Notes: generated by a model from the letters alone, not told the origin. Shown: positions 2,562-19,200, numbered from the stretch's first letter. The stretch is DNA of 64,000 bases from a bacterium (GCA_963674695.2 CAXXGI010000001.1:608001-672000); one strand, 5' to 3'. Translations and numbers: made by a program.

Positions 2562-2657
2562 GGTCATCCCCGCGAAAGCGGGGATCTCGATGGATCGCGA
2601 TAGTCGAGATTCCCCCGCCACACAACCGGCGGGCAGGCTGCTTTCGCGGAAATGACC
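2562..2657. repeat. REP-like inverted doublet with nested ~25-nt hairpin insertion
   Basis: GTCATCCCCGCGAAAGCGGGGATCTC ... GAGATTCCC[insert]GCTTTCGCGGAAATGAC. Confidence 0.8.
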
Positions 2658-2682: not shown

Positions 2683-4479
2683 ATGAGGAGATCATTTCCC
2701 CAGATGAATTTCGAAGCCCTGACAGCACGCGCACGCGAGCCGCATTCATCGACGGCCTTCGATCGCCGATCATTCGATCGCACCATTACATCCGTCGCCG
2801 ATGAGAGCGGCATGACCGCGCTGCGGCAGCAGAGCGTCGAAACCGTCGCCGCGGCAAAGGACCTGCTGGGGCTCAACGGATATTGTGCCGAATCCGGAAA
2901 GAATTCCCAGCTGTGCCGACCCATGTTCGGGCAGACGAGCGCCGCCACAATCATTGAAGAAGGCGCGGTCGTGGTCGAAAATATCGCCCTCGCCACCGGC
3001 GTGGCGCTCGTGGCCTGGGGCATGGGCGAGATCCTCGCTGCCGTCGGCGCATGGCTGGCAACGGCATCGACGGTCGAGGCCGGCATCGGCGCCGGAACGG
3101 GAATGATAGCGATCACCGCCGTCGCCTGCGGCGATGCAACCGAACCCTCCGAAGAAGTCATTCCCGATGGCGACATCGACCTGGACTTCCCCCTGCCCGA
3201 CGGCGACCGCGAACACCCCGAGTTTGCCCCCCATACAGACGGCGATGACGATTCCGTCGAGGGAGACGTCGAGATGGATCCCGCACTCTGCGGCAACGGC
3301 GCCATCGATCCGGGCGAGGAGTGCGAATCGAACGAATGGGGGGAATGGATCGGCTGCACCGACTGCCTGCTCGATCCCCAGCTCACCCTGCTCATCTCGC
3401 GCGTCGGCATTCCCGATGCCATCCGACGCGAAGAGGAACGCGCCATCTTTCGCATCGACGATGAGGAATCGCCTGCTATTCTCTGTTCGCTTCCCGAGCG
3501 CGATGCGAGCGGAACCTTTTCTCGCCTCCATCGTTTCGATAGCCGCACGTCGCTGACCACTTCGGTGCTGACCGGATTCTACGGCTCCCCTTGGCGCCAA
3601 GCCGCGGTCGATACCGAGACGAACTGGCTCTTCTACCAGATGCAAGAGTGGCAGGAGACGCGCCCGCGTCTGGTGCATGTTGACGACGGTATCGTCATCC
3701 CGCTGGAAGGGAAAGATGACGTCACGCTCGAAGGAATGGAGCGCGTCTGCGCCTCGCGGGATCTCACGCACCTGGGCGGCATCGCCCTCGTCGACGGCAG
3801 CCCCACCGATCCGGCGCGCACATTCCGGCGCACCTCGCTCAGCGATCTCATGGAGCGCAACGATCCGCCAAACCCCGCAGCGCAGGGCGTTCAGGTATAT
3901 GAAACGCTGCACGGGGAACTCGCCGCGGGCGCACGCGCCACGACCCATTGCATGGACGATAGGGGCAACGCCGCGATCGCCGGCTGGGACAGCGATCGCA
4001 ACGCCATCGGCGCGATCCTGCTCGTCGCGCCCGACAACAGCGTCACGCGCGTCGCACCGGATATCATCGCAAACGCATCAGCTTCGGCACCCGTCATCGC
4101 CCCCGAGGGCACGCTCTGCTTTCTGGCCATGGCAAGCGATGCCACGGAACTGATCTGCACCTCCGCCAACGACCCCGATGCGATCGAACGCAGCCCCGCC
4201 CCGGAGGCCGCGCGGGAGATCATCGGCATCAGCGACGATGGCCGCCAGGTCATCGCGTTCGACGGCGCACGCGCGCTCTCCCTCTTCGACCGCGAGTTAG
4301 GTCGCTGGATCGAACCGGATCTCGGCGGAATCACGCAGGGGGATATCATCGTCGCCGCCGCCGTGGCCGGCCGCTGGCTCTTCGTGCGCTCCGAATACAA
4401 CGACGGCGGTGACATCGCCACCGCCGTCTGGAGAATCTCTCTTGACGAGACGCTTACGGCTGTCCCTGCATCTCGATGA
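2683..4479 (+). CDS. hypothetical protein, module gene X copy 1 (N-terminal extension, Gly/Ala hydrophobic segment ending AVAC, acidic linker, myxococcal Cys repeat, propeller-like C-terminus)
   Basis: 598-aa ORF; paralog of 12726..14369; CGNGAIDPGEEC; start could be 2683 or 2704. Confidence 0.85.
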   Translation: MRRSFPQMNFEALTARAREPHSSTAFDRRSFDRTITSVADESGMTALRQQSVETVAAAKDLLGLNGYCAESGKNSQLCRPMFGQTSAATIIEEGAVVVENIALATGVALVAWGMGEILAAVGAWLATASTVEAGIGAGTGMIAITAVACGDATEPSEEVIPDGDIDLDFPLPDGDREHPEFAPHTDGDDDSVEGDVEMDPALCGNGAIDPGEECESNEWGEWIGCTDCLLDPQLTLLISRVGIPDAIRREEERAIFRIDDEESPAILCSLPERDASGTFSRLHRFDSRTSLTTSVLTGFYGSPWRQAAVDTETNWLFYQMQEWQETRPRLVHVDDGIVIPLEGKDDVTLEGMERVCASRDLTHLGGIALVDGSPTDPARTFRRTSLSDLMERNDPPNPAAQGVQVYETLHGELAAGARATTHCMDDRGNAAIAGWDSDRNAIGAILLVAPDNSVTRVAPDIIANASASAPVIAPEGTLCFLAMASDATELICTSANDPDAIERSPAPEAAREIIGISDDGRQVIAFDGARALSLFDRELGRWIEPDLGGITQGDIIVAAAVAGRWLFVRSEYNDGGDIATAVWRISLDETLTAVPASR

Positions 4480-6379
4480 GATCGAGCTGACACCGCGCAT
4501 CATTCCCGGTAAACGCTGCACACACCCGATATCGGAAGAGATTTATTGGATCCCCATTGATATACGGTTGCTGCATGACTTCAGGGGGTGCAAAGGTGTA
4601 TTCGATGCGATTGCCATTGCGGCAATAGCATAAAGCATGTTCTTCGCGCGCATCGTTACAAGAAGCCATATCAAGGCCAAAGTCATCACGTGGACCGAAT
4701 CGATCATAGAAGAGCTCATCGTATCCAGCCGGTTCAATCTCAAACATGGAGAGAACGCTGATCGACGCCGTATCCAGGTGTACCCCACTCATTTCGGGCT
4801 CAAATGGGCTGAAAAACTCCAAACAATTATCAACCCTATTGCCAGCCACGCGCGCGCACTCCGACTCTACTGCCTCGCGAAATGCCTGAAGCCACTGAAG
4901 CGAAGAACTCGCTTCGGTCGACCCATCATCGCGAGTCGAAATACCCGTTACAGGCACGCAAGCTCCTACATCGCGAAAGAGCATCGGCGTTTCCAACATA
5001 GATTCCATCCCATACTCCATGCGAAGGTCACGCGCCAGGCGCTCGTAGAGACAAACCCCGTTGGCATATTCGTCCGATCCAAAGGCCTCCGTTCGTTTCA
5101 CCATCGAACCACACTGATCTCGAAATGCAGGGATGACATCCGGGCAGTGATTCACAGAATCGACCGCGGGATAGAGCGGACAGCCGAGATCAGTGCCGCT
5201 CGTCACACTGCCGTACCGACATCGCGTTCCGTCCGCCGATGCCGTCATCCACTTGTTCTGACAGCCAACACACTTCTTCACATTGCGATCCCATATCTTG
5301 CCCATCTCCTCACAGCGCACACACCGCCGACCCTCTACCTTTCCCTTACACAGACAGCCCTCATCGGTCATGTCCGCATTTGGAATGCACTCACACTGCC
5401 CAGCACGATAGACCGCCGCAAGGTTCGGATGTGCCGGCACGCTCTCGCCCGCCATGGCACATCCGCATCCAGCTACACCCAGATAATTCCCCGTATCGTC
5501 GAAGTTACCCACCAACCGATAGTTCGGATCACTCGAAACACATGCCGTGCAAGTCATGTCCGCAAGCACAATTCCAGGACCGTCGTCGGGACAATTGCAC
5601 TGACCACCATCCATATAGGTTCCGCCTTCATACAAACCGGACTCCACCGCATCTCCCCGAGCCGTTTCGGGCTGCAACTCGCCCAAACAATTCGGACAAT
5701 GCGAGATATCCGCAAGGGCATTCCAGACATGGTGGATCTCACCATCCTTCTGTATGCGGAAAGAACACCCACACCAGCGCGGTTCATTTTCGGTCGTATA
5801 TCCGAGCAGCATGCGAATAAGCGGATTGAGTCGGAAGACCATGGAACCTGCCGGACAGGAACAGGAGAGGCCACGCGATTCCGCCCCGGTATAACAATCG
5901 CAACGCTCCTTCTCCTCGTTCCAACGACCATCCTCACACGCCACCCGCAGGCGAGCTTTCCCCAGATAGTCGATCGTCCCAAACTGGAACCCCGACCGTG
6001 CAGAAACTTTTCCCTCCGCATCACCGCCCGATACAATCAGATCCGTGCGCGCCTTCATCTGTTTGCCCATCGTCGCCATCGCAAGCGATGGAGATGCAAC
6101 CGGCTCAGCGATCGACACTACTTTTCCATCGATGCGCACGCGATCGGTGCCGACGAACTCCAGATCGAGTTTTTTGATCTGCGGCATGAGCTTCTCGGGC
6201 ATCCGCTGTTCCACCTTCACCATCGGCACCGCCTCTTTCTGCGGTGCTGCTTTCACCGCCGGTGCCGGCTTCGGCTTGCGCCCGAAGAGCTTGCCCCAGT
6301 CGAAGGCGTCGCTTCGGCCGGGCAGGCAGATGAGAACGGCGACGATGATGATGACGACCGATGCGTGTAGGCGTTTCAT
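4454..6379 (-). CDS. secreted Cys-rich protein, module gene Y copy 1
   Basis: Sec signal (MKRLH...SDA), GGAGG RBS, many CxC/CxxC motifs; paralog of 14372..15781. Confidence 0.85.
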   Translation of the reverse strand: MKRLHASVVIIIVAVLICLPGRSDAFDWGKLFGRKPKPAPAVKAAPQKEAVPMVKVEQRMPEKLMPQIKKLDLEFVGTDRVRIDGKVVSIAEPVASPSLAMATMGKQMKARTDLIVSGGDAEGKVSARSGFQFGTIDYLGKARLRVACEDGRWNEEKERCDCYTGAESRGLSCSCPAGSMVFRLNPLIRMLLGYTTENEPRWCGCSFRIQKDGEIHHVWNALADISHCPNCLGELQPETARGDAVESGLYEGGTYMDGGQCNCPDDGPGIVLADMTCTACVSSDPNYRLVGNFDDTGNYLGVAGCGCAMAGESVPAHPNLAAVYRAGQCECIPNADMTDEGCLCKGKVEGRRCVRCEEMGKIWDRNVKKCVGCQNKWMTASADGTRCRYGSVTSGTDLGCPLYPAVDSVNHCPDVIPAFRDQCGSMVKRTEAFGSDEYANGVCLYERLARDLRMEYGMESMLETPMLFRDVGACVPVTGISTRDDGSTEASSSLQWLQAFREAVESECARVAGNRVDNCLEFFSPFEPEMSGVHLDTASISVLSMFEIEPAGYDELFYDRFGPRDDFGLDMASCNDAREEHALCYCRNGNRIEYTFAPPEVMQQPYINGDPINLFRYRVCAAFTGNDARCQLDLIEMQGQP

Positions 6380-6418
6380 GGTGTCCTCCCGTGGGATGAT
6401 GCAGCGTCATCTATATGT

Positions 6419-6434
6419 AGCAAATTTCGTTCCA
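6419..6434 (-). promoter_or_regulatory. sigma54 (-24/-12) promoter
   Basis: minus strand TGGAACGAAATTTGCT, GG-N10-GC. Confidence 0.7.
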
Positions 6435-6569
6435 GGGATCGATAGGGTTCTGACAAAGAGAGGTGTTTTCGTTTTATGAGTGATAACGGAACCTTCCGGC
6501 AATCATGCCAATTCTATCGAGCAAGAAAGCAAGGCGAGGACGTCAATTCCGTAAAATTGGACGAATTGC

Positions 6570-6583
6570 GACGATTTTTTGAC
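6570..6583. promoter_or_regulatory. putative enhancer-binding protein site (FleQ-box-like)
   Basis: GTCAAAAAATCGTC on minus strand, ~140 bp upstream of the sigma54 promoter. Confidence 0.45.
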
Positions 6584-6599
6584 GATAACAGAGGATGAA

Positions 6600-7175
6600 C
6601 TACCGACACCGCGCGCCCTCGCGCAGTTTGGCCCGCCCACGATGGAGGCGCACGCGCAGGGCTTCCGCGGTCAATCCCAGCATCTCGGCTGCTTCCTCAT
6701 GCGTATGCCCTTCGAAGTCGACGAGCGTGACCGCACGGCGCATGCCGTCGGGAAGTGAGGCCAGGGCCCTTTCCAGACAGGTGCGCAGCTGATCGCTCTC
6801 GATCAACTCCTCGGGCAACGAAACGCGACGATCGCCCGTGGGCGAAGGAAGATGCGCATGGCGCTCATGGACATCATGCGCATCGTGTCCGGACTCCTCC
6901 TGTTTGCGTCGCCGTTTCTTGATGCAAAGCGATTGCGCCACCTTATAGAACCAGTTCTTGACGGAAGCCTCATGGCGAAAACCAGGGAGTGCATCGATGG
7001 CCACGGCGAAGGTCTCCTGCAAGACCTCCTCGGCATCCTCGCGATTGCCACAGACGCGATGGCCATAGCGTTCCATCCGATCGAAATAGCGATGCACGAG
7101 CTCGGCCAATGCGTCGCGATCGCCCCCACGATAGGCCGCCACCAGGTCTCCATCATTTTTCTCGATGCCGGTCAT
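6600..7175 (-). CDS. ECF RNA polymerase sigma factor
   Basis: DAEEVLQETF region 2; region 4 HTH (EEAAEMLGLT...RVRLHRGR); GAGGAG RBS. Confidence 0.92.
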   Translation of the reverse strand: MTGIEKNDGDLVAAYRGGDRDALAELVHRYFDRMERYGHRVCGNREDAEEVLQETFAVAIDALPGFRHEASVKNWFYKVAQSLCIKKRRRKQEESGHDAHDVHERHAHLPSPTGDRRVSLPEELIESDQLRTCLERALASLPDGMRRAVTLVDFEGHTHEEAAEMLGLTAEALRVRLHRGRAKLREGARCR

Positions 7176-7256
7176 ATCACTCCTCATACAAAAGCCGGGC
7201 ATGTGGATCACAACTGAACACTGGGGTCAATGGAATCGCCGCACCATTTATAGAGG

Positions 7257-7295
7257 TTGACAATGCAGGGAATTGTTAGTAACATATGTTCATAA
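7257..7295 (+). promoter_or_regulatory. sigma70 promoter with overlapping palindrome AACATATGTT
   Basis: TTGACA-N17-TAACAT; palindrome 7281-7290; ATG at 7295 near the predicted transcription start. Confidence 0.6.
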
Positions 7296-7651
7296 TGGTG
7301 AGACCGACACTCCAACGCCGTGTAGCCGCCCAACCGAGGGTGCGTCACTTCAAACCGCAGGGGATCCCGCTGGCCGATCTGGCGGAGGTCCAATTGGCCG
7401 AAGACGGCCTGGAAGCCCTGCGGCTCGCCGATGTGGAGGGGCTCTACCACGATGAGGCGGCCCGACGCATGAACGTCTCGCGCCCCACCTTCGGACGCAT
7501 CCTGGCCACGGCCCGACGCACGGTCGCCGAGGCGATCACGATGGGGCACGCGATTCGCATCGAGGGGGGCAGCGTCGAACAGGTCGCCCCACCGCGCGGC
7601 GGCGGGCGCGGCCGAGGTCGCGGACGATGCCGACGTGGGTGGCAACGATAA
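7295..7651 (+). CDS. DUF134 family DNA-binding protein
   Basis: FKPQGIP...LEALRLADVEGL...AARRMNVSRPTF...IRIEGG. Confidence 0.9.
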   Translation: MVRPTLQRRVAAQPRVRHFKPQGIPLADLAEVQLAEDGLEALRLADVEGLYHDEAARRMNVSRPTFGRILATARRTVAEAITMGHAIRIEGGSVEQVAPPRGGGRGRGRGRCRRGWQR

Positions 7652-7678
7652 CGGATGTATACAACGAGGAGGTGGATC

Positions 7679-8032
7679 ATGCCGGGATTCGATAGGACAG
7701 GACCGAGAGGCGAAGGACCCATGACGGGCGGTGGACGAGGGATGTGCAATCCTGCAGGCGGTACGGGTGGATACGGAGGCTACGGTCTCGGCCGCGGCGG
7801 CATGCCCTGGGGTGGCGGGCGCGGACGCGGCTTTGGCGGTGGACGCGGCTGGGGACGCGGTTTCGGCCGAGGATGGTTCGGCGCTGGTGCAGCTGCGCCG
7901 ATCGCAGCACCGACTGCGGATGACGAGCGCCGGTATCTCGCCGATCAACTGAGCCACCTCGAAAATGAGGTACGTGCAATCAAGGATCGCCTCTCCCAGC
8001 TCGACAAGCCGGATGAAAAGGAGCCCACATGA
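7679..8032 (+). CDS. DUF5320 family Gly/Arg-rich protein
   Basis: MPGFDRTGPRGEGPMTGGGRGMC plus C-terminal coiled coil. Confidence 0.88.
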   Translation: MPGFDRTGPRGEGPMTGGGRGMCNPAGGTGGYGGYGLGRGGMPWGGGRGRGFGGGRGWGRGFGRGWFGAGAAAPIAAPTADDERRYLADQLSHLENEVRAIKDRLSQLDKPDEKEPT

Positions 8033-8388
8033 AAATTCTTGTTACCGCAACAGCACCCGACGCGGATGCCGAAGTCGATCCGCGTTTCGGACGCGCCAAA
8101 CACTTCGCGATCTATGACACCGAGGAGAAGTCGTTCTCGTTTGTCGACAACGCGCAGAACTTGAACGCCCCGAGCGGCGCGGGCGTACAGGCAGCCGCCA
8201 ACGTCGCACGCGCCGGGGCCGAGGTGGTCATCACGGGCAACTGCGGTCCGAAGGCATTTCACACGCTCACCGCGGCGAAGATCAAGATCGCCATCGGGGC
8301 GACGGGCACGGTGCGCGAAGCGATCAAGAAATTCGAAGGAGATGAACTCGACATCGCCACCGAAGCGAATGTCGAAGGACATTGGTAG
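8029..8388 (+). CDS. NifB/NifX family (orange-protein-like) cofactor-binding protein
   Basis: VDPRFGRA, GAGVQAA, ITGNCGPKAF, NVEGHW. Confidence 0.92.
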   Translation: MKILVTATAPDADAEVDPRFGRAKHFAIYDTEEKSFSFVDNAQNLNAPSGAGVQAAANVARAGAEVVITGNCGPKAFHTLTAAKIKIAIGATGTVREAIKKFEGDELDIATEANVEGHW

Positions 8389-8406
8389 GATACCGAGGAG
8401 GTTCAT

Positions 8407-8634
8407 ATGCCACGAGGTGACGGAACAGGACCGATGGGCGGCGGAGGTGGCCGCGGTGGACGAGGTGGCGGTGGAATGGGCGGAGGTCGCGGGCGCATGG
8501 GCGGAACGGCTGCCGGGCTGGGTGGAGAGTGCGTCTGCCCCAAGTGCGGCAAGCGCATTCCGCACGGACGCGGCGCCCCTTGCAATCAGATACCATGCCC
8601 TGACTGCGGCACAACGATGACACGCGCCTCATGA
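8407..8634 (+). CDS. small Gly-rich protein with Zn-ribbon-like CxCPxCG...CPxCG
   Basis: MPRGDGTGPMG...CVCPKCG...PC...CPDCG; GGAGG RBS. Confidence 0.8.
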   Translation: MPRGDGTGPMGGGGGRGGRGGGGMGGGRGRMGGTAAGLGGECVCPKCGKRIPHGRGAPCNQIPCPDCGTTMTRAS

Positions 8635-9485
8635 GAATCGCCATCGCCAGCGGCAAGGGGGGAACGGGGAAGACGACCATCGCCACGAGCGTGGCGCTCG
8701 CACTCGTTCGCGCAGGGCGCGCCGCGCAACTCATCGATTGCGATGTCGAGGAACCCAACTCCCATCTCTACATCCATCCCGCCATCGAGAAAACCATCGC
8801 GGTGGACGTGATGGCCCCGATGGTCGATCAAACCACATGTACGCACTGCGGCGCTTGTGCCGAGTTCTGCCGTTTCAATGCGCTGGCCTCGCTCCCCGAT
8901 CAGACGCTCGTCTTTCCGGAACTCTGTCACAGCTGCACCGGATGTGTGCACGTCTGCCCGGAAAAGGCCATCGCAGCGATCCAGCGCACCATCGGTTCGA
9001 TCGAAATCGGTCACGATGGAAAGCTCATCTATGCCGCAGGACGCCTCAATGTCGGCGAAGCGCGCGCTACACCGATCATCGCTGCGCTCGACGCCCACAT
9101 CGATGCCGATCGCGTGACCATCCTCGACGCCCCGCCGGGCTCCTCCTGTCCGGTCGTCGAAACGCTGCGCATCAGCGACTTCTGTCTGCTTGTCGCTGAG
9201 CCCACGCCGTTTGGTCTGGCCGATCTCGAACACGTCGCGGCCGTCGCAGAAGCGATGAAGATTCCCCGCGCAGCCCTCATCAACCGCGACGGCATGGGGG
9301 ATGATCGCGTCGAACGATTCCTGGAGGAGAAAGGGGTGCCGCTCCTCATGAAGATCCCCAACGATCGCCGCATCGCCGAACGCATGGCCGGCGGCACGGC
9401 CCTCATCGATGTACGACCTGAGCTGGCCCCACCCCTGCTCGACCTGGTCGAAAAAATCGAACGACTCTCTCGTGAGGCATCATGA
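8631..9485 (+). CDS. MinD-superfamily P-loop ATPase with inserted 2x[4Fe-4S] ferredoxin
   Basis: SGKGGTGKT, DCDVEEPN, CTHCGAC, CHSCTGC. Confidence 0.93.
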   Translation: MRIAIASGKGGTGKTTIATSVALALVRAGRAAQLIDCDVEEPNSHLYIHPAIEKTIAVDVMAPMVDQTTCTHCGACAEFCRFNALASLPDQTLVFPELCHSCTGCVHVCPEKAIAAIQRTIGSIEIGHDGKLIYAAGRLNVGEARATPIIAALDAHIDADRVTILDAPPGSSCPVVETLRISDFCLLVAEPTPFGLADLEHVAAVAEAMKIPRAALINRDGMGDDRVERFLEEKGVPLLMKIPNDRRIAERMAGGTALIDVRPELAPPLLDLVEKIERLSREAS

Positions 9486-10345
9486 CCAAGACCCTCGTCG
9501 TCATCAGCGGAAAGGGAGGCACGGGAAAGACCAGTGTCACCGCATCGTTCGCACTGCTCGCCTCGAACGCCGTCATCGCCGATGGCGATGTCGACGCCGC
9601 CGACCTGCACCTGATCCTCGATCCGACGACACGCGAAAAGGCCCCCTTCACCGCAGGCGTCATCGCATCGATCGATCGTGAGCGCTGCACCGCATGCGGC
9701 GCATGCCGCGAAGCATGCGTCTATCACGCCATCGACGAATCGTTCGTCATCGATCCGATCGCCTGCGAGGGCTGCGGACTCTGCCAGTGGATCTGTCCCG
9801 CCGATGCCGTCGTCCTCACACCAAACGCATGCGGGCGCTCATTCATCTCCGACACGCGCGCCGGTCCTTTCGTACACGCGCGCCTCGATCCCGGCGCGGA
9901 GAACTCCGGCAAACTCGTCTCCTTCGTGCGCGGAAAGGCCGCCGAATTGGCCGAGGAGAAGAAACTCGTCATCGTCGATGGACCACCGGGGATCGGCTGT
10001 CCGGTCATCGCCGCCATCGGGGGAACGGATCTCGCGCTCATCGTCACCGAACCCTCGGCCGCCGCCTTTGAGGACTTGAAGCGCATCGCCGACACCGCCG
10101 CTCACTTCGACGTTCCGGTCGTCTGCGCGATCAATCGCTATGACATCAGCACAGAGCTGACCGCACGCATCGAGGCGTATCTGGCCGAACGCAGCATCCC
10201 GCTCATCGGCCGCATCCCCTATGACGAGGCCTTTTTCGCCGCACAGCTAGCGGGAAAAGCGATCGTGGAGGCGGACAAAGGCCCTGCCGCAACGGAGATT
10301 CGGCGCATGTGGAAAAACATTGAAGATCGGCTCGGAATGGAATAG
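9482..10345 (+). CDS. MinD-superfamily P-loop ATPase with inserted ferredoxin (second subunit)
   Basis: SGKGGTGKT, CTACGAC, CEGCGLC, ENSGKLV, DGPPGIGCP. Confidence 0.93.
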   Translation: MTKTLVVISGKGGTGKTSVTASFALLASNAVIADGDVDAADLHLILDPTTREKAPFTAGVIASIDRERCTACGACREACVYHAIDESFVIDPIACEGCGLCQWICPADAVVLTPNACGRSFISDTRAGPFVHARLDPGAENSGKLVSFVRGKAAELAEEKKLVIVDGPPGIGCPVIAAIGGTDLALIVTEPSAAAFEDLKRIADTAAHFDVPVVCAINRYDISTELTARIEAYLAERSIPLIGRIPYDEAFFAAQLAGKAIVEADKGPAATEIRRMWKNIEDRLGME

Positions 10346-10357
10346 AGATCGCCCGCT

Positions 10358-10789
10358 ATGATCGAATATACGGACATCCTGCGGGATCACTTCCTCACAC
10401 CGCGCAACGCCGGCGAGATCGAATCACCCGATGGCGTGGGGTTCATCGGCGATCCGGGTTGCGGCGACATGCTCAAGGTGACCATCCGCGTCGAGAACGA
10501 TCGCCTCACCGATATCCGCTTTCTCTGCAAGGGGTGCGCGGCGGCCATCGGCACCGCCAGCATGATGACGGAGATGGCCCGAGGCAAGACGCTCGACGAG
10601 GCGATCGAGATCACCGACGAGGCGATCGAAGCGGCGGTCGGCGGGCTGCCGGAAGCCAAGCGCCACTGTTCCAACCTGGGCGCGAGTGCCCTGCACGAAG
10701 CGGTCTACGACTACACGCACAAAAGCATCGAACACGAGACGTACGCCGCTCGCGCGATGGACGTCTTTTCCCCCAACGAAGGAGGATGA
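10358..10789 (+). CDS. IscU/NifU-type Fe-S scaffold
   Basis: HFLTPRNAG, PGCGD, KGCAAA, KRHCSNL. Confidence 0.9.
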   Translation: MIEYTDILRDHFLTPRNAGEIESPDGVGFIGDPGCGDMLKVTIRVENDRLTDIRFLCKGCAAAIGTASMMTEMARGKTLDEAIEITDEAIEAAVGGLPEAKRHCSNLGASALHEAVYDYTHKSIEHETYAARAMDVFSPNEGG

Positions 10790-10791
10790 TC

Positions 10792-11130
10792 ATGAAGGTT
10801 GCCATACCGATTGCCAACGGAGCGCTCTGCATGCACTTCGGTCACTGCGAACAGTTCGCCCTCGTGGAGGTCGACGAAACCACGAAGACGATCACCCAGA
10901 CGACGATGGTCACCCCGCCGCCGCACGAACCCGGCATGCTCCCGCCGTGGTTGGCCAAACAAGGCGCCACGCACATCATCGCCGGCGGCATGGGCAGCCG
11001 CGCGCAGGACCTCTTCGCGGCACAGAGCATCGCGGTCATCGTCGGCGCCCCGGCAGACGAACCGGAAGCGTTGGTGAAGTTGTATCTTTCCGGAACGCTC
11101 AAGACGGGCACGAATACGTGTGATCACTGA
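10792..11130 (+). CDS. NifB/NifX family protein
   Basis: MKVAIP...HFGHC...PPPHEPG...IAGGMG...CDH; GGAGG RBS. Confidence 0.9.
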   Translation: MKVAIPIANGALCMHFGHCEQFALVEVDETTKTITQTTMVTPPPHEPGMLPPWLAKQGATHIIAGGMGSRAQDLFAAQSIAVIVGAPADEPEALVKLYLSGTLKTGTNTCDH

Positions 11131-11159
11131 TCGGACACTGATGTCACCGCGAGGGAGAC

Positions 11160-12119
11160 ATGAACCCTTCTACTCGCCATGTCTTCGGCCCCGTCCCGTC
11201 GCGTCGCCTCGGCCGATCGCTGGGCGTCGATCTCGTTCCGTTCAAGACCTGCACCTATGATTGCATCTACTGCCAGCTCGGACCGACACCCCAGCAAACG
11301 GTTACGCGCCATTCATTCATTTCGGTCGAAGGAGTACTCGACGAGGTGAAAGCGCTTCTGAGCGAAGGCGTCCTCGCGGACTTCATCACCCTCTCCGGCT
11401 CAGGGGAACCGACCCTCAACAGCGACATCGGGCGTATCGTCGAGGAACTCAAGGCCCGTTTTTCCATCCCCGTAGCGGTATTGACCAACGGCTCGCTGCT
11501 GTGGATGCCCGAGGTGCGTCGTTCGCTCCTCGCCGCCAATCTCGTCATCCCGTCGCTCGACGCGAGCAACCCGGATATTTTTCGCCGCATCAATCGTCCG
11601 CACGATGACATCGATTTCTCCCGCATGCTCGATGGCCTCATCACCTTCCGCGAGGAATACCGCGGCCAAATCTGGCTCGAAGTCTTCCTCGTTCGCGGCA
11701 TCAACGACGGCGACCACGAGATCGAAGCGCTCGCAGAGGCTGCACGCCGAATCCGTCCGGACCGCATTCAGCTCAACACCGTAGACCGCCCTCCGGCTGA
11801 GACAGGCGTGCACCCGGTGCCACGCGAAGTCCTCGATGCGATCTGCGATCGTTTCCAACCGCATGCGGAGATCATCGCTTCATTCAAGCACCGCGGCGAA
11901 GTCGTGCGCACGTCAACGGCCAAAGAGATCGTCACCCTCTGCCAAAGGCGTCCCTGCACGCTCTCGGATATCGCCGAAGCATTGGGCCTGCATCGAAACG
12001 AAGTCGTCAAGTTGACGAGGGAACTCACACAACGCGGCCGACTTCAGATCAAACGCGCGGAACGCGGGGTGTTCTACACGGCGATGGGCAAAGGCGAAGC
12101 GCCCGAAGCCGAGGAATAA
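11160..12119 (+). CDS. radical SAM protein with C-terminal HTH
   Basis: FGPVPSRRLGRSLG, CTYDCIYC, SGSGEPTL. Confidence 0.93.
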   Translation: MNPSTRHVFGPVPSRRLGRSLGVDLVPFKTCTYDCIYCQLGPTPQQTVTRHSFISVEGVLDEVKALLSEGVLADFITLSGSGEPTLNSDIGRIVEELKARFSIPVAVLTNGSLLWMPEVRRSLLAANLVIPSLDASNPDIFRRINRPHDDIDFSRMLDGLITFREEYRGQIWLEVFLVRGINDGDHEIEALAEAARRIRPDRIQLNTVDRPPAETGVHPVPREVLDAICDRFQPHAEIIASFKHRGEVVRTSTAKEIVTLCQRRPCTLSDIAEALGLHRNEVVKLTRELTQRGRLQIKRAERGVFYTAMGKGEAPEAEE

Positions 12120-12158
12120 CCCTTTCCGCTTTTTCCCGTTGAAAAAAGACCCGATGCC

Positions 12159-12503
12159 TTATCGACTGCGACCCGAGCGACGATGTTGAAGCAGGAGAAC
12201 CCCGGTCACGATGAGGGCGATGGGCAGAAGCGGGAGATCGAGCCCCATCATTTCGCTCCCTCCCGCCGCGAGGAAGAGCACGCCGATGATCACCCAGTAC
12301 CAACTGATGGTCTGACGCAGGAGCAGGCGCACGAGCGTTCCGAAGAGCGAGATAATGCCCACGCCGAGCGCGCCGACACCGCGCGGGATCTGCGGCAGGA
12401 CGAGCACCGCGCCGATCCAGACGAAGAAGAGGACCCAGCCGAAGGCATCGAGGCCCTTGGAGAGCCGGCCGCGCCCCTGTCTTCCGATCGTCATGCCGTT
12501 CAT
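12159..12503 (-). CDS. small 4-TM membrane protein
   Basis: 114-aa hydrophobic ORF. Confidence 0.7.
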   Translation of the reverse strand: MNGMTIGRQGRGRLSKGLDAFGWVLFFVWIGAVLVLPQIPRGVGALGVGIISLFGTLVRLLLRQTISWYWVIIGVLFLAAGGSEMMGLDLPLLPIALIVTGVLLLQHRRSGRSR

Positions 12504-12656
12504 GGGACCCCCGTAACCAGCAGTGCAAAAACAACACAGTGGGGCGCATCCCGCAAGCCGTTTTGAGGGTCACTCCGAAATTCGCGTTGCGCTTCAGCAC
12601 GTTGCCCGATAAGTCCCCGGTAACGCAATCGCTGGAGAAACACCAAACCACTTGAA
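12483..12656. repeat. conserved leader element, copy 1
   Basis: 42/44-nt core 12576-12619 matches 16074-16117; identical 17-mer GCAGTGCAAAAACAACA; shared AAACACCAAACC. Confidence 0.85.
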
Positions 12657-12674
12657 GAGCACGGGAAAAAGATC

Positions 12675-12701
12675 ACAACTTTCCGCGATCATGACCGATA
12701 A
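12675..12701 (+). promoter_or_regulatory. sigma28/FliA-type promoter
   Basis: ACAACTTT-N11-ACCGATAA, 25 nt upstream of ATG 12726. Confidence 0.6.
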
Positions 12702-12725
12702 TCATGTTGACTACCTCCGGAAGGA

Positions 12726-14369
12726 ATGGACCTGGGAACGATCAACGCCATGGGAATGCCTCTGAACGTACACACGCTCTCGCGACGGAACGACGCCACC
12801 GGCGCCGCTTGGCTACACGAGCGAAGCGTTGAGACCATCGCTTCCGGAAAACACCTCCTGGGGATCGATGGTTACTGCGCCGCACCAACAGCGAGCAGCA
12901 CATCTCACCTGCTGTGCACTCCTCTCATCGGACAAACCAGCCTCGCGGACATCTTCGAAGAAGCGGCCGTTCTCGTAGAGAACACCGCGCTGGCAATCGC
13001 CGGCACCATGGCCGTTGCCGGCGCCATCGCGGCAGCGGGCACGACGACGACCATCGGGGCCGCCGTAAGCGCCCTCCTCCTCATTGGCTGCACCGACGAT
13101 CACGCGACCGACGACAAGATCAACACCATCATCCATCCAGACGGCGACCGCGATCGCCCGGAGTTTGCCCCGCACACCGACGGCGATGAAGAAGTCGCGC
13201 AGGAGGAAGAGTGGGAGGAGGTGGACCCCGCGCTCTGCAGCAACGGCGAGCTCGACCCGGGCGAGGAGTGCGAGGCCAATTCGTATGGAGTCTGGATCGG
13301 TTGCACCGACTGCCTCCTCGATCCAAGCCTCACCAAGATCTTCTCGCACAGCATGGCGACCGCCGACTATCCCGAAACGACGGCCCCCAACCTGCAAGCC
13401 AAGGGGGACGACGGCATAATTGCCGTCTTCAGCGTTCCGAAGATCGACAGCGTCTCCCTCTATTCTTCCGTCCATGCCTTCGACGGCCGCACGGGGGAGA
13501 ACCCGCGCCTGGCGTCCGGCTACTACGGCATTCCCTGGCGCCAATCGGCCGTGAGCGACAACCTGGAACTCTTCGCCTATCAGATGGGGGGATGGGAGTT
13601 CACAACGCCGCGCGTCTTCGATCGCAATGGCGACGTCGATTATCTCCCGATCAGCGGCGTCGAGACGATGTGCACCTCCTCCGACCTCAGCTGGATCGGC
13701 GGCGTCACGCTCGCGAACGACCCGGACGATACACCGAGGGCGTTCTCCGTCGCGAAAATCTCCTTCGGTCGTAACGAGAATGATGTGCAGATCGTCGAGG
13801 GGATTGAACTCGCCCACGATGGGCTTCGCGACGAGCTTGCCGGCGGTGCCGTCGCCACGCGCCACTGTCTGGACGACGAGGGCTTCGGCGTCGTCGCCGC
13901 GCGAACGATGGACGGCATCGGCGCGCTCTATCTCGTCTCGCCGACGGGAGCATCACAGCGCATCGCCGATGAACTCACGCTCGCGAGCGCAGCGGTCATA
14001 TCGAGCGGCGGCATCATCGCCTTCCTCGCCCACAACGGTGACGCAAAGGACCTCGTCACCATCGATCGGCGCGACCCGGATACATGTATGCGCATCAGCG
14101 CACCACCGGGGGTCTCGCGCATCCACGACATCTCGCACGACGGCGCGAGCATCATCACCGACAGCGGCAGCGATGAAAGCGTTTACATCCGCCTGGCCGA
14201 AACGGACGAGTGGCGACTGACGAACACGGAATCGATCTCCGAGGACGAGCAGATCACGGCCGCCGTCATTCGCGGCACATGGATCTATCTGCAGACGAAG
14301 GATACGACCGGCGATCTCACGCGAACAAACATCTGGCGTTTGGCGCGCGAAGGGGAAACAACGAGGTGA
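12726..14369 (+). CDS. hypothetical protein, module gene X copy 2
   Basis: 547-aa paralog of 2683..4479 (DGDRxxPEFAPHTDGD, DPALCxNG...GEEC...WIGCTDCLLDP, YGxPWRQxAV). Confidence 0.85.
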   Translation: MDLGTINAMGMPLNVHTLSRRNDATGAAWLHERSVETIASGKHLLGIDGYCAAPTASSTSHLLCTPLIGQTSLADIFEEAAVLVENTALAIAGTMAVAGAIAAAGTTTTIGAAVSALLLIGCTDDHATDDKINTIIHPDGDRDRPEFAPHTDGDEEVAQEEEWEEVDPALCSNGELDPGEECEANSYGVWIGCTDCLLDPSLTKIFSHSMATADYPETTAPNLQAKGDDGIIAVFSVPKIDSVSLYSSVHAFDGRTGENPRLASGYYGIPWRQSAVSDNLELFAYQMGGWEFTTPRVFDRNGDVDYLPISGVETMCTSSDLSWIGGVTLANDPDDTPRAFSVAKISFGRNENDVQIVEGIELAHDGLRDELAGGAVATRHCLDDEGFGVVAARTMDGIGALYLVSPTGASQRIADELTLASAAVISSGGIIAFLAHNGDAKDLVTIDRRDPDTCMRISAPPGVSRIHDISHDGASIITDSGSDESVYIRLAETDEWRLTNTESISEDEQITAAVIRGTWIYLQTKDTTGDLTRTNIWRLAREGETTR

Positions 14370-14371
14370 GG

Positions 14372-15781
14372 TCACGGACAGATCGTACTGTCCTCCATCA
14401 GGTCCGAAAACTGCACCCGCAACTGCTCGCAGACAAGCCCCTGAATATCCACGGCACTCCCGACGAACGAATAATTGAGACGGGCATCTTCCCCGTCATG
14501 GTTCGCGCGACAATAACAGGAATCCGTGAAGGCATTCGAATTGTCGCAGTAGAATATCCTTCCCTGAGAGGGGATATCATCCGGCCCAAACGCAGTCATC
14601 CCCTCGTAGAACCATGCACCACTGATGTTGACCGGCAGGTAAGCGTCGTCCCCTTCCACGTGCGTCCACAGGAAGTCATTATTGGACATGCACGCGCCGT
14701 ACCGTTCAGTTCCAAACCCGAACAGGGCAAGGCATCCAACGTGGAGGGCCTCGCGATACTCATACAGCCATCGCGGGGAGATCAACGGCTCGCCGTCGGC
14801 ACTCACCTCTTCGATGACCGGCAGACAGAGCTTGCCGATCGATCCAGAGGTCTTCCCGAAGATCCCCTTCGCCTCCCAGTCCATAGAATTCGTCATCTGC
14901 TCATACAGGCAGGAGGTTTTTCCTTTATCCTGGACCATCTTTCCGCACGAGCTGAACTCCGGGCAACGATCATCACTATCCGGCACCACGCGAAGCGGAC
15001 AACCCAGCTCCGCTCCCGCCGTCTCCGGGTAGAGACATTTTCTGCCGACGCGAGCCATCCACCTGTTGGGGCACTCCTGGTGAACGGTGACGCCGAAACC
15101 GACATCCTTGCAATGCCCCCCGTTGCGCATCCTTTCCGGGTTCGCGGGGGTAAAACCGGACAAGCAGACACATCCCTCGGACGTCCCCGAATCGACGGCG
15201 TTGTCGCCACACCCGCAAGTCCGCGTCGAGGGATCGGGAATGCCCAGGGGATCCACATACGTGCCGCCCTCATCTCTCGCGCAGTAGCATTCGCCGGTGC
15301 GCGCATTCCGCTTGTAGAGGGGATCGTCGGATTTGCAGAGATTGCACTTCCCCAAACGGGCATCGATCATGGGGGAGTCTTTCGGGCAGCGACACTCCGA
15401 CATCCCGGCGTAGGTTCTCGAACTGCGCTCGCTGACCTTCTTGCCGGTGAGATTCTCCCGTTCCGTATCCCCCATGCACGCGCACCCGGCCGTCGGTGCC
15501 GCGAAGATATCCGGAAGCTGCACCTCCTTCACCAGGTTGCCTCCCTGAGGTTCGTACACCGTATAGCTGCACATGCAACGCGATAAGAACCACATCTGAC
15601 CATCGGGACACCGACGCCTGATCTCCCCCGTCATCCGTTTCTTCAGGCTCGGGGGACGCTGCACTCCCGATGGCTTTGCACGCATGCTCGATCCGGTCCG
15701 CAACTGCGCATCGCTCGTCGCGGATATCAGGAGACCGGTGGCGATGAGAACGACTCCGAGGGCAATCGATGCACGTTTCAT
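14372..15781 (-). CDS. secreted Cys-rich protein, module gene Y copy 2
   Basis: Sec signal MKRASIAL...SDA; shares CxCPxDxP, CxNxWM, LGCPL, CGxMV, CLYE, REA, FGPxD, CYCR with 4454..6379. Confidence 0.85.
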   Translation of the reverse strand: MKRASIALGVVLIATGLLISATSDAQLRTGSSMRAKPSGVQRPPSLKKRMTGEIRRRCPDGQMWFLSRCMCSYTVYEPQGGNLVKEVQLPDIFAAPTAGCACMGDTERENLTGKKVSERSSRTYAGMSECRCPKDSPMIDARLGKCNLCKSDDPLYKRNARTGECYCARDEGGTYVDPLGIPDPSTRTCGCGDNAVDSGTSEGCVCLSGFTPANPERMRNGGHCKDVGFGVTVHQECPNRWMARVGRKCLYPETAGAELGCPLRVVPDSDDRCPEFSSCGKMVQDKGKTSCLYEQMTNSMDWEAKGIFGKTSGSIGKLCLPVIEEVSADGEPLISPRWLYEYREALHVGCLALFGFGTERYGACMSNNDFLWTHVEGDDAYLPVNISGAWFYEGMTAFGPDDIPSQGRIFYCDNSNAFTDSCYCRANHDGEDARLNYSFVGSAVDIQGLVCEQLRVQFSDLMEDSTICP

Positions 15782-15816
15782 GACGCCTCCCCGTTGAACC
15801 AACAGGGCATTATATA

Positions 15817-15832
15817 AGCAAGAGGCATGCCA
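15817..15832 (-). promoter_or_regulatory. sigma54 (-24/-12) promoter
   Basis: minus strand TGGCATGCCTCTTGCT, GG-N10-GC. Confidence 0.75.
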
Positions 15833-15954: not shown

Positions 15955-15968
15955 GTCAATATATCGTC
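15955..15968. promoter_or_regulatory. putative enhancer-binding protein site (FleQ-box-like)
   Basis: GTCAATATATCGTC ~125 bp upstream of the sigma54 promoter; IHF-like TTTCAATAGGTTG lies between them. Confidence 0.45.
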
Positions 15969-15980
15969 ATGTCGCGACCA

Positions 15981-16188
15981 TCCGATCGTCATGTCATTCA
16001 TGCCGCATCCGTGAATTGCAGTGCAAAAACAACATGGTAGCGACAATCCTGGAAGCCGTTTCGAGCCTCCATTCGAAATTCGCGTTGCGTTTCAGCACGT
16101 TGCCCGATAGGTCCCCGTCTCCGAATCTCAGCGGCTCGTCCTCGGGGGAGGCGAACGCAACCTGTGGATAAACACCAAACCGATTGAA
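15981..16188. repeat. conserved leader element, copy 2 (extra ~33-nt hairpin-like insert)
   Basis: matches 12483..12656 including the first codons MNxMTIG on the minus strand. Confidence 0.85.
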
Positions 16189-16279: not shown

Positions 16280-19200
16280 ATGACCAAGACACGCATCGCC
16301 CTCATCCTCACCCTCATCCTGATGATTTTCCTGGCCCTTCCCGAAAGCGCCTTCGCTGCCGATGGCGATGGCGACGGGTGGCAGGATGCCGCGGAAATCC
16401 TCTGCGGCACCGATGAAACCAATGTCGCCGACATGCCGACCGATACCGACGGTGATGGCGTTTGCGACGTCCTGGAAGATTCCGACCTCGACGGCGATGG
16501 GTTCTCCGCCGGCGTCGAAATGCTGTGCGGATCGGATCCGGCCGATGCGGGCGATGTGCCGACCGATACCGATGGCGATGGCGACTGCGACACGATCGAC
16601 GCCGATCGCGACGGCGATGGCTGGTACGATGCGATCGAAGACGGCTGCGGCACCGACCCGGCCGATGCGGGCGATGTGCCGACCGATACCGACGGCGATT
16701 CGATCTGCGACGCGATGGAAGTCTCCGACCGCGATGGCGACGGCGTCGTCGATGCGATCGAAACGCTCTGCGGTTCGAATCCGGCCGATGCCGGTTCGAT
16801 CCCGACCGACACCGATGCCGACGGCGACTGCGATGCCATCGACGCCGACCGCGACGGCGATGCGTGGGCCAATACGATGGAGACCGCTTGCGGCACCGAT
16901 GCGGACAACGCCGCCGACGTGCCGACCGACACTGACGGTGACAACGTCTGCGATGCGATGGAAGACGGCGACACCGACGGCGATGGGGTGGAAAACGCGG
17001 TCGAGACCGTCTGCGGGTCGGACCCCGCCAATGCGGCATCAACCCCGACCGACACCGATGGTGACGGCGACTGCGACGCGATCGACGATGACGACGATGC
17101 CGATGGATGGATCGACGCGCTCGAGACAGCCTGCGGAAACGATCCTGTCGATGCAGGGGACATACCGACCGACACGGATACCGACGGCATCTGCGACCTG
17201 ATGGAGACGGCCGATCTCGACGGCGACACCTATGCCAACGCGCATGAAACGCTGTGTAACTCCAACCCAAGCGATGCGGGGTCAACGCCGCCGGACACGG
17301 ACGGCGACGGCACCTGCGATGCGATCGACCCCGACATCGATGCGGACGGCTGGATCAACGAACTGGAGACGCTCTGCGCGACGGATCCGAGCGACAACGC
17401 CTCGATCCCGGTCGACACCGACGGCGATGGCCTCTGCGATGCGATGGAGACGGCCGACATCGACGGCGACGGTTTTGAAAATGCGATCGAGACGATGTGC
17501 GGATCCGACCCGGCCGATGCGGGTTCGACGCCGGCCGATGCGGATGGCGACGGCACCTGCGATACGCTCGACGCCGACACCGACGGCGATGGCTTCGGCA
17601 ACGACATCGAGACCGTCTGTGATTCCGATCCCAATGATGCGGGCGACACCCCGACCGACACCGATGGCGATGGCACCTGCGATGCCCTCGAAGATGACGA
17701 CCTCGACGGCGACGGTTTTGCCTCGGCCATCGAAGCGCTCTGCGGATCCGACCCCGCCGATGCGGGCGACACCCCTGCGGATGCCGATGGCGACGGCGAC
17801 TGCGATGCCATCGATGCCGACATCGACGGCGACACCTGGGCGAACACGATGGAAACCGCTTGCGGCACCGATCCGAACAACGCCGCCGACGTGCCGACCG
17901 ACACCGATGGCGATCTGATCTGCGATGCGATGGAGCAGGATGACATCGACGGCGACGGCGTGGCCAATGTCATCGAGGATCTCTGCGACTCGGATCCGGC
18001 CGACGCGGGTTCGACGCCGACCGACAGCGATGCCGACGGCACCTGCGACACGCTCGACGCCGACCGCGATGGCGACGGGTGGAGCAATGCTATCGAAGCC
18101 CCCTGCGGCACGAGTGCGGACAACGCCGCGGACATCCCGCTCGACCTGGACGCCGACGGCGTCTGTGACGCGATGGAGGATGCTGATACCGACGGCGACG
18201 GCTCCACCGACGCCGAAGAAAACCTGTGTGGATCAGATGCGAACAACGCGGCCGTTACGCCCATCGATGCCGCACACGACGCGGACGGCGATGGAACGTG
18301 CGACGCCCTCGACGCCGATCGCGATGGCGACGGCTGGGACGACACGATCGAGACCGGCTGCGGCACCGACCCCGCCGATGGAGCGGACGTCCCCGCCGAC
18401 ACCGACGGCGATCTGATCTGCGATGCGATGGAGGTCGCCGACATCGATGGCGACGGATTCTCCAATGCCTTGGAAACCATCTGCGGATCCTCCACGACCG
18501 ACGCGTTGGAAACGCCCACGGACATCACGCGCGACATCGACGGCGACGGCACCTGTAACGAACTCGACGCCGACCGCGATGGCGACGGATGGGACGACAC
18601 GATCGAAGCTCCCTGTGGCACCGACCCGGCCGACGGAGGCGACACGCCTGCCGACACCGACGGCGATTCGATCTGCGACGCGATGGAGATCGCCGACACC
18701 GACGGCGACGGATTCTCCAACACCTTAGAGACGATCTGCGGATCCTCCACGACCGTTGCCGGGCAGACGCCGATCGATGCCACGCGCGACATCGACAGCG
18801 ACGGCACCTGTAATGCCCTGGACAACGATCAGGATGGCGACGGCTGGATCAACGATATCGAAACCCTCTGCGGATTCGACGCGGCCGATGCCGCCTCGAT
18901 TCCGGCCGATGTGGATGGCAACGGCATCTGCGATGCCCTGCAGGATCCGGCTCGTCCGGTGATCACCGCACTCACGATCGACGGCGTTGCGGGCCCCGCC
19001 ACCAAGGATGAAGGCACGGTGGTCACCTTGGGCGTCACCGCCAGCGATCCGCTGAACGACACGCTCACCTATCTCTATACGCGCGTGAGCGGACCGGCCG
19101 TCGTTTTGCCGGGCGGCGATGGAACCAATACCCTCGCCGTCACGCTTCCGAGCGTGGCCGGTGACGAACAGCTTATCATCCGCGTGGCCGTTCAGAATGA

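Follow-up and report, generated by a model that had tools for sequence, protein, structure and literature searches.

The 64,000-nucleotide window analysed here (C1:608001-672000 of the bacterial genome G000, a 3.03-Mb, 100%-complete assembly in three contigs) contains two copies of a two-gene module, each composed of a gene X (X1, X2) and an adjoining gene Y (Y1, Y2), and a third pair, X3/Y3, is found on contig C3 of the same genome. We tentatively propose that X is an anchored propeller receptor and Y its cognate secreted, disulfide-rich partner, and that this lineage-specific pair has been duplicated as a unit with its halves under two different sigma factors. We give this proposal somewhat less than an even chance of being correct as a whole.

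The open reading frames of the four window genes (Table 1) lie where a first-pass annotation of this DNA had placed them, and its claim that they constitute two paralogous pairs holds: X1 and X2 align over 562 columns with 35% identity (E 4e-97), and Y1 and Y2 over 451 columns with 26% identity (E 1e-15). The motifs it had listed are all found, namely SVET..LLG..GYC..LC.P..GQTS, DGDRxxPEFAPHTDGD and CxNGxxDPGEEC in X, and in Y the signal peptides with an SDA end together with CxCPxDxP, CxNxWM, LGCPL, CGxMV, CLYE and CYCR. The 3' ends of X1 and Y1 overlap by 26 bases, and the stop codons of X2 and Y2 are 2 bases apart. Y2 is assigned the ATG at 15781, which has a GGAGG site ahead of it; an alternative TTG at 15802 is too near the predicted transcript start. 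Because about 6 kb of unrelated genes separate the two modules (an extracytoplasmic function (ECF) sigma operon, two MinD/ferredoxin-like genes, NifU, a NifB/X-like gene and a radical-SAM gene), they do not represent a tandem duplication.

Searches of the genome with X1 and X2 returned three X paralogs (E 0, 9e-95 and 8e-29) and a partial relative, X4c. The third paralog, X3 (C3:202722-204059, minus strand), encodes 445 residues, and matches X1/X2 at E 8e-29 to 5e-32 and the X profile at E 5e-40. The 493-residue frame immediately downstream on the same strand, Y3, encodes a protein with 36 Cys and a Sec signal. With Y1 and Y2 as genome queries the matches were Y1 and Y2 alone. The likeness of Y3 to this family resides in a 41-residue BLAST match with Y1 (E 0.001), in the mature N-terminus (AFDFFGLFK, resembling AFDWGKLFG in Y1), and in the placement of the cysteines. 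Added to the Y alignment, Y3 fills 19 of the 25 shared Cys columns, compared with 10–16 for 20 shuffles, 14 for the reversed sequence, and 10–14 for five other cysteine-rich frames (21–30 Cys); segments with 51–77 Cys filled 16–19. Ranked by Cys content among stop-to-stop frames of at least 250 residues, spurious ones included, Y3 is 4th, Y2 9th and Y1 13th. It is very unlikely that an X copy would stand beside each of Y1, Y2 and Y3 by chance.

The convergent order of the two genes, which had been regarded as a fixed feature, fails in pair 3, where X3 and Y3 are arranged in tandem on one strand with a 67-bp spacer that contains the sigma-54 promoter of Y3. What is retained despite this change of orientation is the adjacency of X and Y, which applies to all three paralogous pairs and probably also to a fourth, orthologous pair. 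The latter consists of P0006 (64% identity to X1) and P0007 (52% identity to Y1 over the full length). Since each of them is recorded from a single contig of 10,831 bases, the two genes probably share one and the same contig of a relative. The divergence ranks of X and Y agree, with 64%/52% for the orthologs, 35%/26% for copy 2, and 29%/barely detectable for copy 3, and X and Y appear to be inherited as a pair.

In the alignment of X1, its ortholog, X2 and X3, the Cys that closes an Ala/Gly-rich hydrophobic segment is invariant (C149 in X1), and the matching spot in X4c reads AMAGC. A lipobox has the form [LVI][ASTVI][GAS]C and follows a hydrophobic stretch; judged by eye, the segment ends in lipobox-like fashion in X3 (VALQGC), X2 (LLLIGC), X4c (AMAGC), X1 (TAVAC) and the ortholog (LASAC). 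X3 starts directly at the anchor, with an MR N-terminus and a lipoprotein-type signal ending in VALQGC at residue 32, whereas in X1, X2, X4c and the X1 ortholog the anchor is preceded by a further conserved domain (~90 residues in X1/X2). The stretch is thereby located 90–150 residues from the N-terminus in X1, X2 and X4c, which is atypical for lipoproteins. X4c (C1:3-1883, minus strand) has only the N-terminal ~100 residues in common with X (E 2e-20, profile positions 19-127), and continues with TSP3-like repeats followed by an OmpA domain (PF00691, E 5e-9) in a frame that reaches the contig start. This peptidoglycan-binding OmpA domain can function only in the periplasm, which would make everything that follows the anchor extracytoplasmic across the X family.

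The C-terminal part of X was said to be propeller-like, and residues 250–595 of X1 indeed adopt a seven-bladed fold. In the AlphaFold2 model of X1, the mean predicted local distance difference test (pLDDT) value is 50, with 76–91 for residues 420–570 and values below 50 for residues 1–254. The 250–595 region superimposes on the 7-bladed propeller of 3c5m_A with Z 18.9 and a root-mean-square deviation of 3.9 over 294 residues, on Sec12 with Z 18.2, and on many WD40 domains with Z 16–18. Foldseek paired the X1 model with TolB and S9-peptidase propellers at E about 1e-7 to 1e-6 (6.7e-7 for TolB 2hqs_A), and in PDB sequence profiles the sole match for X was 1l0q at E 0.42. X1 and its ortholog are 63–83% identical over residues 181–540 and identical at 30/30 positions in residues 541–570. 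As for the cysteine module that precedes the propeller, X3 scores 22.3 bits against DUF4215 (PF13948; E 1.6e-4), under the 27-bit cut-off, and X1 and X2 give no match.

The Y proteins are composed of a Sec signal, a run of CxC-type modules and a mixed helix/strand C-terminal half. Sec signals are present on Y1, Y2 and Y3, each with 30–37 Cys. When the Cys columns are aligned, Y1, its ortholog and Y2 have 25 in common (Y2 has 30 Cys), and Y1 and the ortholog 37/37. Between these two orthologs, 30-residue windows in the cysteine half are 57–77% identical, and those in the C-terminal 190 residues 17–47%, as expected for a surface that bears specificity. For Y, PDB sequence profiles gave zero matches, and in the ESM Atlas zero usable matches were obtained for Y2 and Y1, with low recognition values of 1774 and 1725.

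Each X gene was found behind a sigma-28-like promoter motif, in line with the sigma28-type promoters claimed for X1 and X2, and with X3 included the count is 3/3. The general form in X1 and X2 is AACTTT-N11-NCCGATAA, and X3 has AACTTT-N11-GTCGATAA, located 13 nt ahead of the X3 start by manual count; the -10-type CCGATAA (GTCGATAA in X3) is positioned 11–12 nt after AACTTT in the X genes. The -35 element of Escherichia coli sigma-28 promoters is of the TAAA type, compared with AACTTT here. The motif is far above chance in the genome, with 13 sites for AACTTT-N12-CCGATAA against 0.03 expected and 0 in the reversed form, and the AACTTT/CCGATAA pair was found only at spacers of 12, 13 and 14 (13, 3 and 9 sites). 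In X1 the promoter is located 157 nt before the ATG (24 nt in X2, 13 nt in X3) because a dispersed repeat of ~94 nt has been inserted in the leader. This repeat has two hairpins and is present in the genome in dozens of copies, some complete and some partial. Upstream of X4c, a weaker sigma-28-like word, CTCTTT-N11-TGCCGATCA, is present.

The Y genes keep sigma54 promoters in 3/3 copies (Y1, Y2 and Y3), in line with the first-pass annotation; these are predicted from the motif, and the genome encodes rpoN (448 bits, over the cut-off). TGG[CA]A[CT]-N5-TTGC[AT] occurs at 64 sites genome-wide against 8.6 expected, with 6–9 sites for each wrong spacer and 4 in the reversed form. The site in the X3–Y3 spacer suggests that Y3 keeps its own promoter even where co-transcription with X3 is possible. 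The upstream box that was also ascribed to the Y genes is common to two of them: CATGACGATC is found at -161 before Y2 and Y3 alike (GACGA at -158), the Y3 copy being within the X3 coding sequence, and since this 9-mer has 102 occurrences in the genome, the shared offset is unlikely to have arisen by chance. Y1 has three TCGTC words, at -151, -140 and -130, in the opposite orientation to the Y2/Y3 box.

A candidate for the sigma factor that would read the X promoters is a 289-residue protein whose top NCBIfam match is FliA/WhiG (132 bits, under the 189.6 cut-off). Its gene (C3:8530-9399) is found amid homologs of YscJ/FliF/SctJ, FliG, FliH/SctL, the FliI/SctN ATPase, FliJ/YscO, FliM, FliN and FliP (C3:5658-17797); FlhA/SctV is encoded elsewhere (C1:140901-143066), beside secA and FHA/YscD-like genes. 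Flagellin (PF00669) and rod/hook domains (PF00460, PF06429) gave 0 matches in the complete genome, and control genomes were positive. About 32 sites of the form (C)GCAACTTT-N11-13-CCGATA[AT] are present genome-wide, each just upstream of a gene, and the ~30 genes behind the motif encode mostly unknown non-flagellar proteins without Sec signals, which are candidate cargo or regulon members of the export core. Several of these gene products have cysteine-rich helical N-termini. Of the flagellar-like hierarchy suggested earlier, the FliA-like sigma inside an export-core cluster stands, and the flagellar part does not, given the absence of flagellin, rod and hook matches and a regulon of mostly non-flagellar unknowns. 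The genome looks like one with a flagellar-type export core and a FliA-like regulon and no sign of a flagellum, that is, with a flagellum-derived secretion apparatus lacking the filament. One further product encoded behind a sigma-28-like site (C1:~998860-999621, minus strand) is a TSP3-repeat protein that ends in Gly-Cys, a hydrophobic helix and RRRT, which we take, by eye, to be a MYXO-CTERM-like sorting tag.

Relatives of X and Y are scarce. Among 5.8 billion clustered proteins, 3 of 7,999 scored candidates matched X1 (itself, X2 and the foreign P0006), and among 1.84 billion representatives, every protein of which was read by HMMER, Y1 had 2 matches, P0007 and Y2. X2 was found in 0 of 40 genomes of relatives (family 0/12, order 0/9, class 0/19). 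In 93 species genomes of the phylum, the X profile matched over its whole length in G000 alone (1/93), and seven others matched only at profile positions 88–216, corresponding to the linker and cysteine module. The X alignment yielded 180 candidate stretches and 0 relatives among 241 million metagenome records, and a scan of species-representative genomes (tblastn, at least 606 candidate stretches) gave 13 loci, all over X1 residues 144–266 only, mostly in Myxococcota and Bdellovibrionota. With X1 residues 30–150 alone as query, the window's own protein was the only match among 1,491 candidates. The rarity of X rests on these clustered-protein, metagenome, species-representative and phylum-genome searches, from which both families appear restricted to a single lineage of genus rank, represented by one genome and one related contig.

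Neither X nor Y maps to a known family, which agrees with the suggestion, in the first-pass annotation, of an undescribed system. Pfam and NCBIfam gave 0 families for X1, X2, Y1 and Y2 at E up to 1. X3 and Y3 were scanned in Pfam, PADLOC and PHROGs and not in NCBIfam, and in Pfam 0 families were found for Y3 and only the sub-cut-off DUF4215 for X3. PADLOC and PHROGs, which cover anti-phage defence and phage families, each gave 0 families for 6/6 proteins (E up to 0.01). The families are called undescribed solely because they lack relatives in sequence searches. An effector–immunity relationship between X and Y, which had been listed among the possibilities, or a toxin role is disfavoured: no toxin, nuclease, peptidase or immunity-like domain was found, and both partners have export signals.

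In the arrangement that we propose, X and Y would be the two parts of a lineage-restricted cell-envelope module, duplicated as a unit at least twice. X should be held at the membrane by the Ala/Gly-rich hydrophobic segment ending in the lipobox-like Cys, which in X3 would amount to a plain lipoprotein signal peptide and in X1 and X2 would be preceded by the additional ~90-residue N-terminal domain. Outside the cytoplasm, X would expose an acidic linker, one disulfide-knotted DUF4215-like module and the seven-bladed propeller. Y, with 470–640 residues, is predicted to be exported by Sec, with a fixed CxC-type scaffold in its N-terminal half and the fastest evolving part in its C-terminal half. 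An extracytoplasmic place fits both proteins because both have export or anchor signals and cysteine scaffolds. Each Y would then dock on the propeller of its cognate X, so that X would serve as anchored receptor and Y as secreted ligand or adhesin component, and the complex would form only with both regulators on, X depending on the FliA-like sigma and Y on sigma-54 together with an enhancer-binding activator.

Several observations weigh against this arrangement. The hydrophobic segment of X1 and X2 is weak and long (Kyte-Doolittle maximum 1.7), and if it were to form two helices, the propeller could be cytoplasmic. The separate promoters could mean that X and Y are made at different times and never meet; the sequencing runs listed as holding this DNA were three, all from one study, with no RNA run among them. 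A hidden Markov model (HMM) built from Y1, its ortholog and Y2 misses Y3 (E 110), and Y3 is best described as Y-like, its homology to Y being likely and short of proven; when the genome's 16,998 open frames were all searched, the same HMM revealed no further Y copy. With only four pairs in existence, the congruence of X and Y trees has low power. Finally, the AlphaFold2 model of Y2, from a 4-row alignment, has a mean pLDDT of 33, which makes it unusable for a fold search.

An unlikely alternative, though the most probable of the rivals, is that the Y proteins are disulfide-cross-linked structural envelope proteins of one life stage under sigma-54, comparable to chlamydial OmcB/OmcA, with X an anchored protein of the same stage that acts separately; the genes would then be neighbours on account of a shared part in envelope remodelling, without one-to-one binding. 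The 30–37 Cys of Y, its Sec signal and the sigma-54 promoter in 3/3 copies are all consistent with such a role, as is the Chlamydia-like set of sigma factors (sigma-54 and a sigma-28-like factor) with a type III export core and no flagellin; the C. trachomatis cysteine-rich envelope genes omcA and omcB are described, in passages of PMC7482065, as having sigma-54 promoters. However, Y has no Pfam or NCBIfam match, the fast divergence of its C-terminal half is unusual for a purely structural protein, and a structural role leaves unexplained why every Y copy still has its X after three duplications and one reorientation. It is more doubtful that the two genes are functionally uncoupled altogether, i.e., neighbouring fast-evolving orphan genes copied by segmental duplication, with their adjacency as a relic. 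The restriction to one genus-level lineage (whole-length X in 1/93 genomes of the phylum) argues for it, and the three loci have neither flanking genes in common nor a conserved third gene. Relics would, however, hardly be expected to look as these copies do: they are old (26–35% identity, with still less in pair 3), yet the open frames are intact throughout, as are the cysteine scaffolds and signals, neither promoter class has been lost, and pair 3 has been rearranged and is still adjacent, with its own sigma-54 promoter acquired or kept in the 67-bp spacer.

The N-terminal domain of X suggests two further possibilities. One, which we regard as improbable, is that X is an anti-sigma-like transmembrane transducer, its N-domain in the cytoplasm and its propeller a sensor outside, beyond the anchor, and that Y serves as its extracytoplasmic signal or modulator; the N-domain would act on a cytoplasmic partner, e.g., the FliA-like sigma taken to transcribe X, much as FlgM does in flagellar systems. 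The conserved ~60-residue N-domain that X1, its ortholog, X2 and X4c have ahead of the anchor, the sigma-28-like motif before the X genes, and the ECF sigma operon immediately upstream of Y1 are compatible with signalling. Against it, searches at E up to 1 found no anti-sigma or FlgM family for the N-domain, which is modelled at pLDDT ~30, and X3, where this domain is missing, has kept the promoter and the Y partner all the same. Even less probable is that the flagellum-derived type III apparatus exports X1 and X2, their N-terminal ~90 residues being the export signal, and that X ends up on or inside another cell, where surface Y binds it; the Tir–intimin pair provides an analogy. A Sec signal is missing from the extreme N-terminus of X1 and X2, whose hydrophobic segment is weak, and they belong to a ~30-gene regulon mostly without Sec signals, with a promoter type matched by the sigma from the export-core cluster. 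But X3 has an ordinary lipoprotein signal, in X4c this N-domain is fused to an OmpA domain that is periplasmic, type III export is poorly suited to a propeller and a folded disulfide module, and export by this apparatus is itself a supposition. In its most extended form, which by analogy with Tir/intimin would have three specificities, X/Y would be the working end of a filament-less, flagellum-derived secretion system in which the FliA-like sigma drives ~30 orphan genes, and X1/X2 are exported via their N-terminal domain as planted receptors for the sigma-54-controlled Y adhesins, copy by copy; this is the least probable scheme considered here, and highly speculative.

Among known systems, TraA/TraB and OmcA/OmcB come closest as two-gene envelope modules that include a cysteine-rich partner, and TolB–Pal comes closest as a pair of a propeller and its partner. 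Pfam and NCBIfam place X and Y in none of TraA, OmcA/OmcB and TolB. In passages of PMC3325183, TraA/TraB of Myxococcus xanthus is described as a two-gene envelope module for outer-membrane exchange and kin recognition, in which one partner is cysteine-rich (thought to be disulfide-bonded) with a variable recognition part, the other is OmpA-like, and the receptor is polymorphic. X resembles it in having a cysteine module of myxobacterial type and a relative, X4c, with an OmpA domain. Unlike TraA, X1, X2, Y1 and Y2 are without TIGR04201, PA14 and the MYXO-CTERM family TIGR03901 (0 families at E up to 1), and no hydrophobic C-terminal tail is found on X or Y. In addition, traAB forms a single operon, while X and Y each have a promoter of their own, from two different sigma classes, and the recognition domain of X is a propeller. 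Chlamydia is a precedent for sigma-54 and sigma-28 at work without flagella. Its sigma-54 regulon is reported to contain omcA and omcB together with type III effectors (PMC7482065); OmcA and OmcB themselves are a lipoprotein and a ~60-kDa Sec-exported cysteine-rich protein, with genes side by side and sigma-54 promoters (PMC7482065). The X/Y module would likewise combine a putative lipoprotein with an adjoining Sec-exported cysteine-rich protein under a sigma-54 promoter, in a host that shows no sign of a flagellum and has a sigma-28-like factor and a type III export core, but it has no sequence relation to OmcA/OmcB (Pfam, NCBIfam), X is large with a propeller and a sigma-28-like promoter, and there are three diverged pairs rather than one.

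Similarities to TolB–Pal are noted in that the X propeller aligns with TolB structures, is probably envelope-anchored and plausibly binds a partner protein, and in that its sibling X4c has a Pal-type OmpA domain. X1 does possess the propeller fold, yet this is generic to many propellers; X has no PD40/TolB Pfam match and no TolB N-terminal domain, and seven-bladed WD40-like enzymes and scaffolds score equally well or better. BamB is another beta-propeller of the periplasmic lipoprotein kind. The X module CxxGxx[DE]xGEEC...GCxxDC is similar to DUF4215, the cysteine-rich repeat of Myxococcus, but X scores under the Pfam cut-off and has a single copy instead of tandem arrays. DUF4215 also comes up in a paper on diatom adhesive proteins. 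Cascades of sigma-54 and sigma-28 are known from the flagellar systems of Vibrio, Pseudomonas and Campylobacter. The likeness to these consists of the gene sets for sigma-54 and a FliA-type sigma, the FliA-like gene being surrounded by fliF/G/H/I/J/M/N/P homologs; it does not extend to flagellin, rod and hook domains (0 matches), to a regulon that here encodes unknown proteins, or to an order in which sigma-54 stands above the FliA-like sigma. The parts themselves (propeller, cysteine module, cysteine scaffold) are ordinary, and what is unusual is the orphan families, the three-fold duplication of the pair with the two-sigma split kept, and a FliA-like regulon without a flagellum.

If binding is indeed copy by copy, the module would be a compact natural set of three orthogonal receptor–ligand pairs, each built of a propeller and a disulfide scaffold with its halves wired to two sigma factors. 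It would then offer a handle on the surface life of a little-known uncultured phylum (attachment, recognition, life-stage change), and on the use of a flagellar-type export core and a FliA-like regulon in an organism that has no flagellum. If there is no binding, X/Y would be an ordinary lineage-specific expansion of orphan envelope genes. The reach is limited either way, the module being known from one genome and one related contig.

Table 1. Positions in the window of the two X/Y gene pairs, of the parts of X1, and of the predicted regulatory elements
Feature	Position	Strand	Remarks or basis
X1 coding sequence	2683..4479	+	598 residues; ortholog P0006 aligned from first Met
Y1 coding sequence	4454..6379	-	641 residues; Sec signal ...GRSDA; 37 Cys
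X2 coding sequence	12726..14369	+	547 residues; X1-like architecture; lipobox-like LIGC at Cys122
Y2 coding sequence	14372..15781	-	469 residues; Sec signal ...ATSDA; 30 Cys
X1 N-terminal domain (~residues 45-100, SVET..GYC..LC..GQTS..EEGAV)	2815..2982	+	also in X2, ortholog and X4c; absent from X3
X1 Ala/Gly-rich hydrophobic segment with lipobox-like AVAC end (Cys149)	2959..3129	+	hydropathy, alignment
X1 acidic linker (DGDRxxPEFAPHTDGD) and one cysteine module CGNGxxDPGEEC...GCxDC	3130..3372	+	alignment
X1 seven-bladed beta-propeller (residues 250-595)	3430..4467	+	AlphaFold2 model, Foldseek, VIA-align Z 18.9
X1 sigma-28-like promoter, AACTTT-N11-GCCGATAA	2501..2525	+	sequence and genome-wide motif scan
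Dispersed ~94-nt repeat copy in X1 leader	2563..2656	.	blastn: many genome copies, 88-100% identity
X2 sigma-28-like promoter, AACTTT-N11-ACCGATAA	12677..12701	+	sequence and genome-wide motif scan
12-bp GC-rich hairpin in X1 3' end, just past Y1 stop	4402..4428	.	encodes X1 residues 574-582, identical in ortholog
Y1 sigma-54 promoter, TGGAACGAAATTTGCT	6419..6434	-	motif scan; rpoN present
Three TCGTC words, 10-11 bp apart, 130-151 bp before Y1 promoter	6560..6585	-	candidate activator site
Y2 sigma-54 promoter, TGGCATGCCTCTTGCT	15817..15832	-	motif scan
Two CATGACGAT boxes, 22 bp apart, 136-161 bp before Y2 promoter	15963..15993	-	same word at same offset before Y3

The hairpin within the 3' end of X1 is likely a shared terminator of the convergent X1/Y1 pair. 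As for the surroundings of the modules, the three-gene operon directly upstream of Y1 (window 6600-8565, minus strand) has the ECF sigma gene last, after two genes (206 and 249 residues) without Pfam match, a gene order that is unusual for ECF/anti-sigma pairs. On the other side, divergent from Y2, a gene at window 16280-21775 (plus strand) encodes a 1,831-residue protein with PKD, cadherin-like and Big_9 repeats, which adds another large surface protein to these surroundings. Pair 3 is flanked by two uncharacterized paralogous genes of ~220 residues (C3:204273-205619), and past these by a gene for a 361-residue lysine-rich protein with a cysteine-rich N-terminus, located behind a perfect sigma-28-like site (C3:205690-206775).

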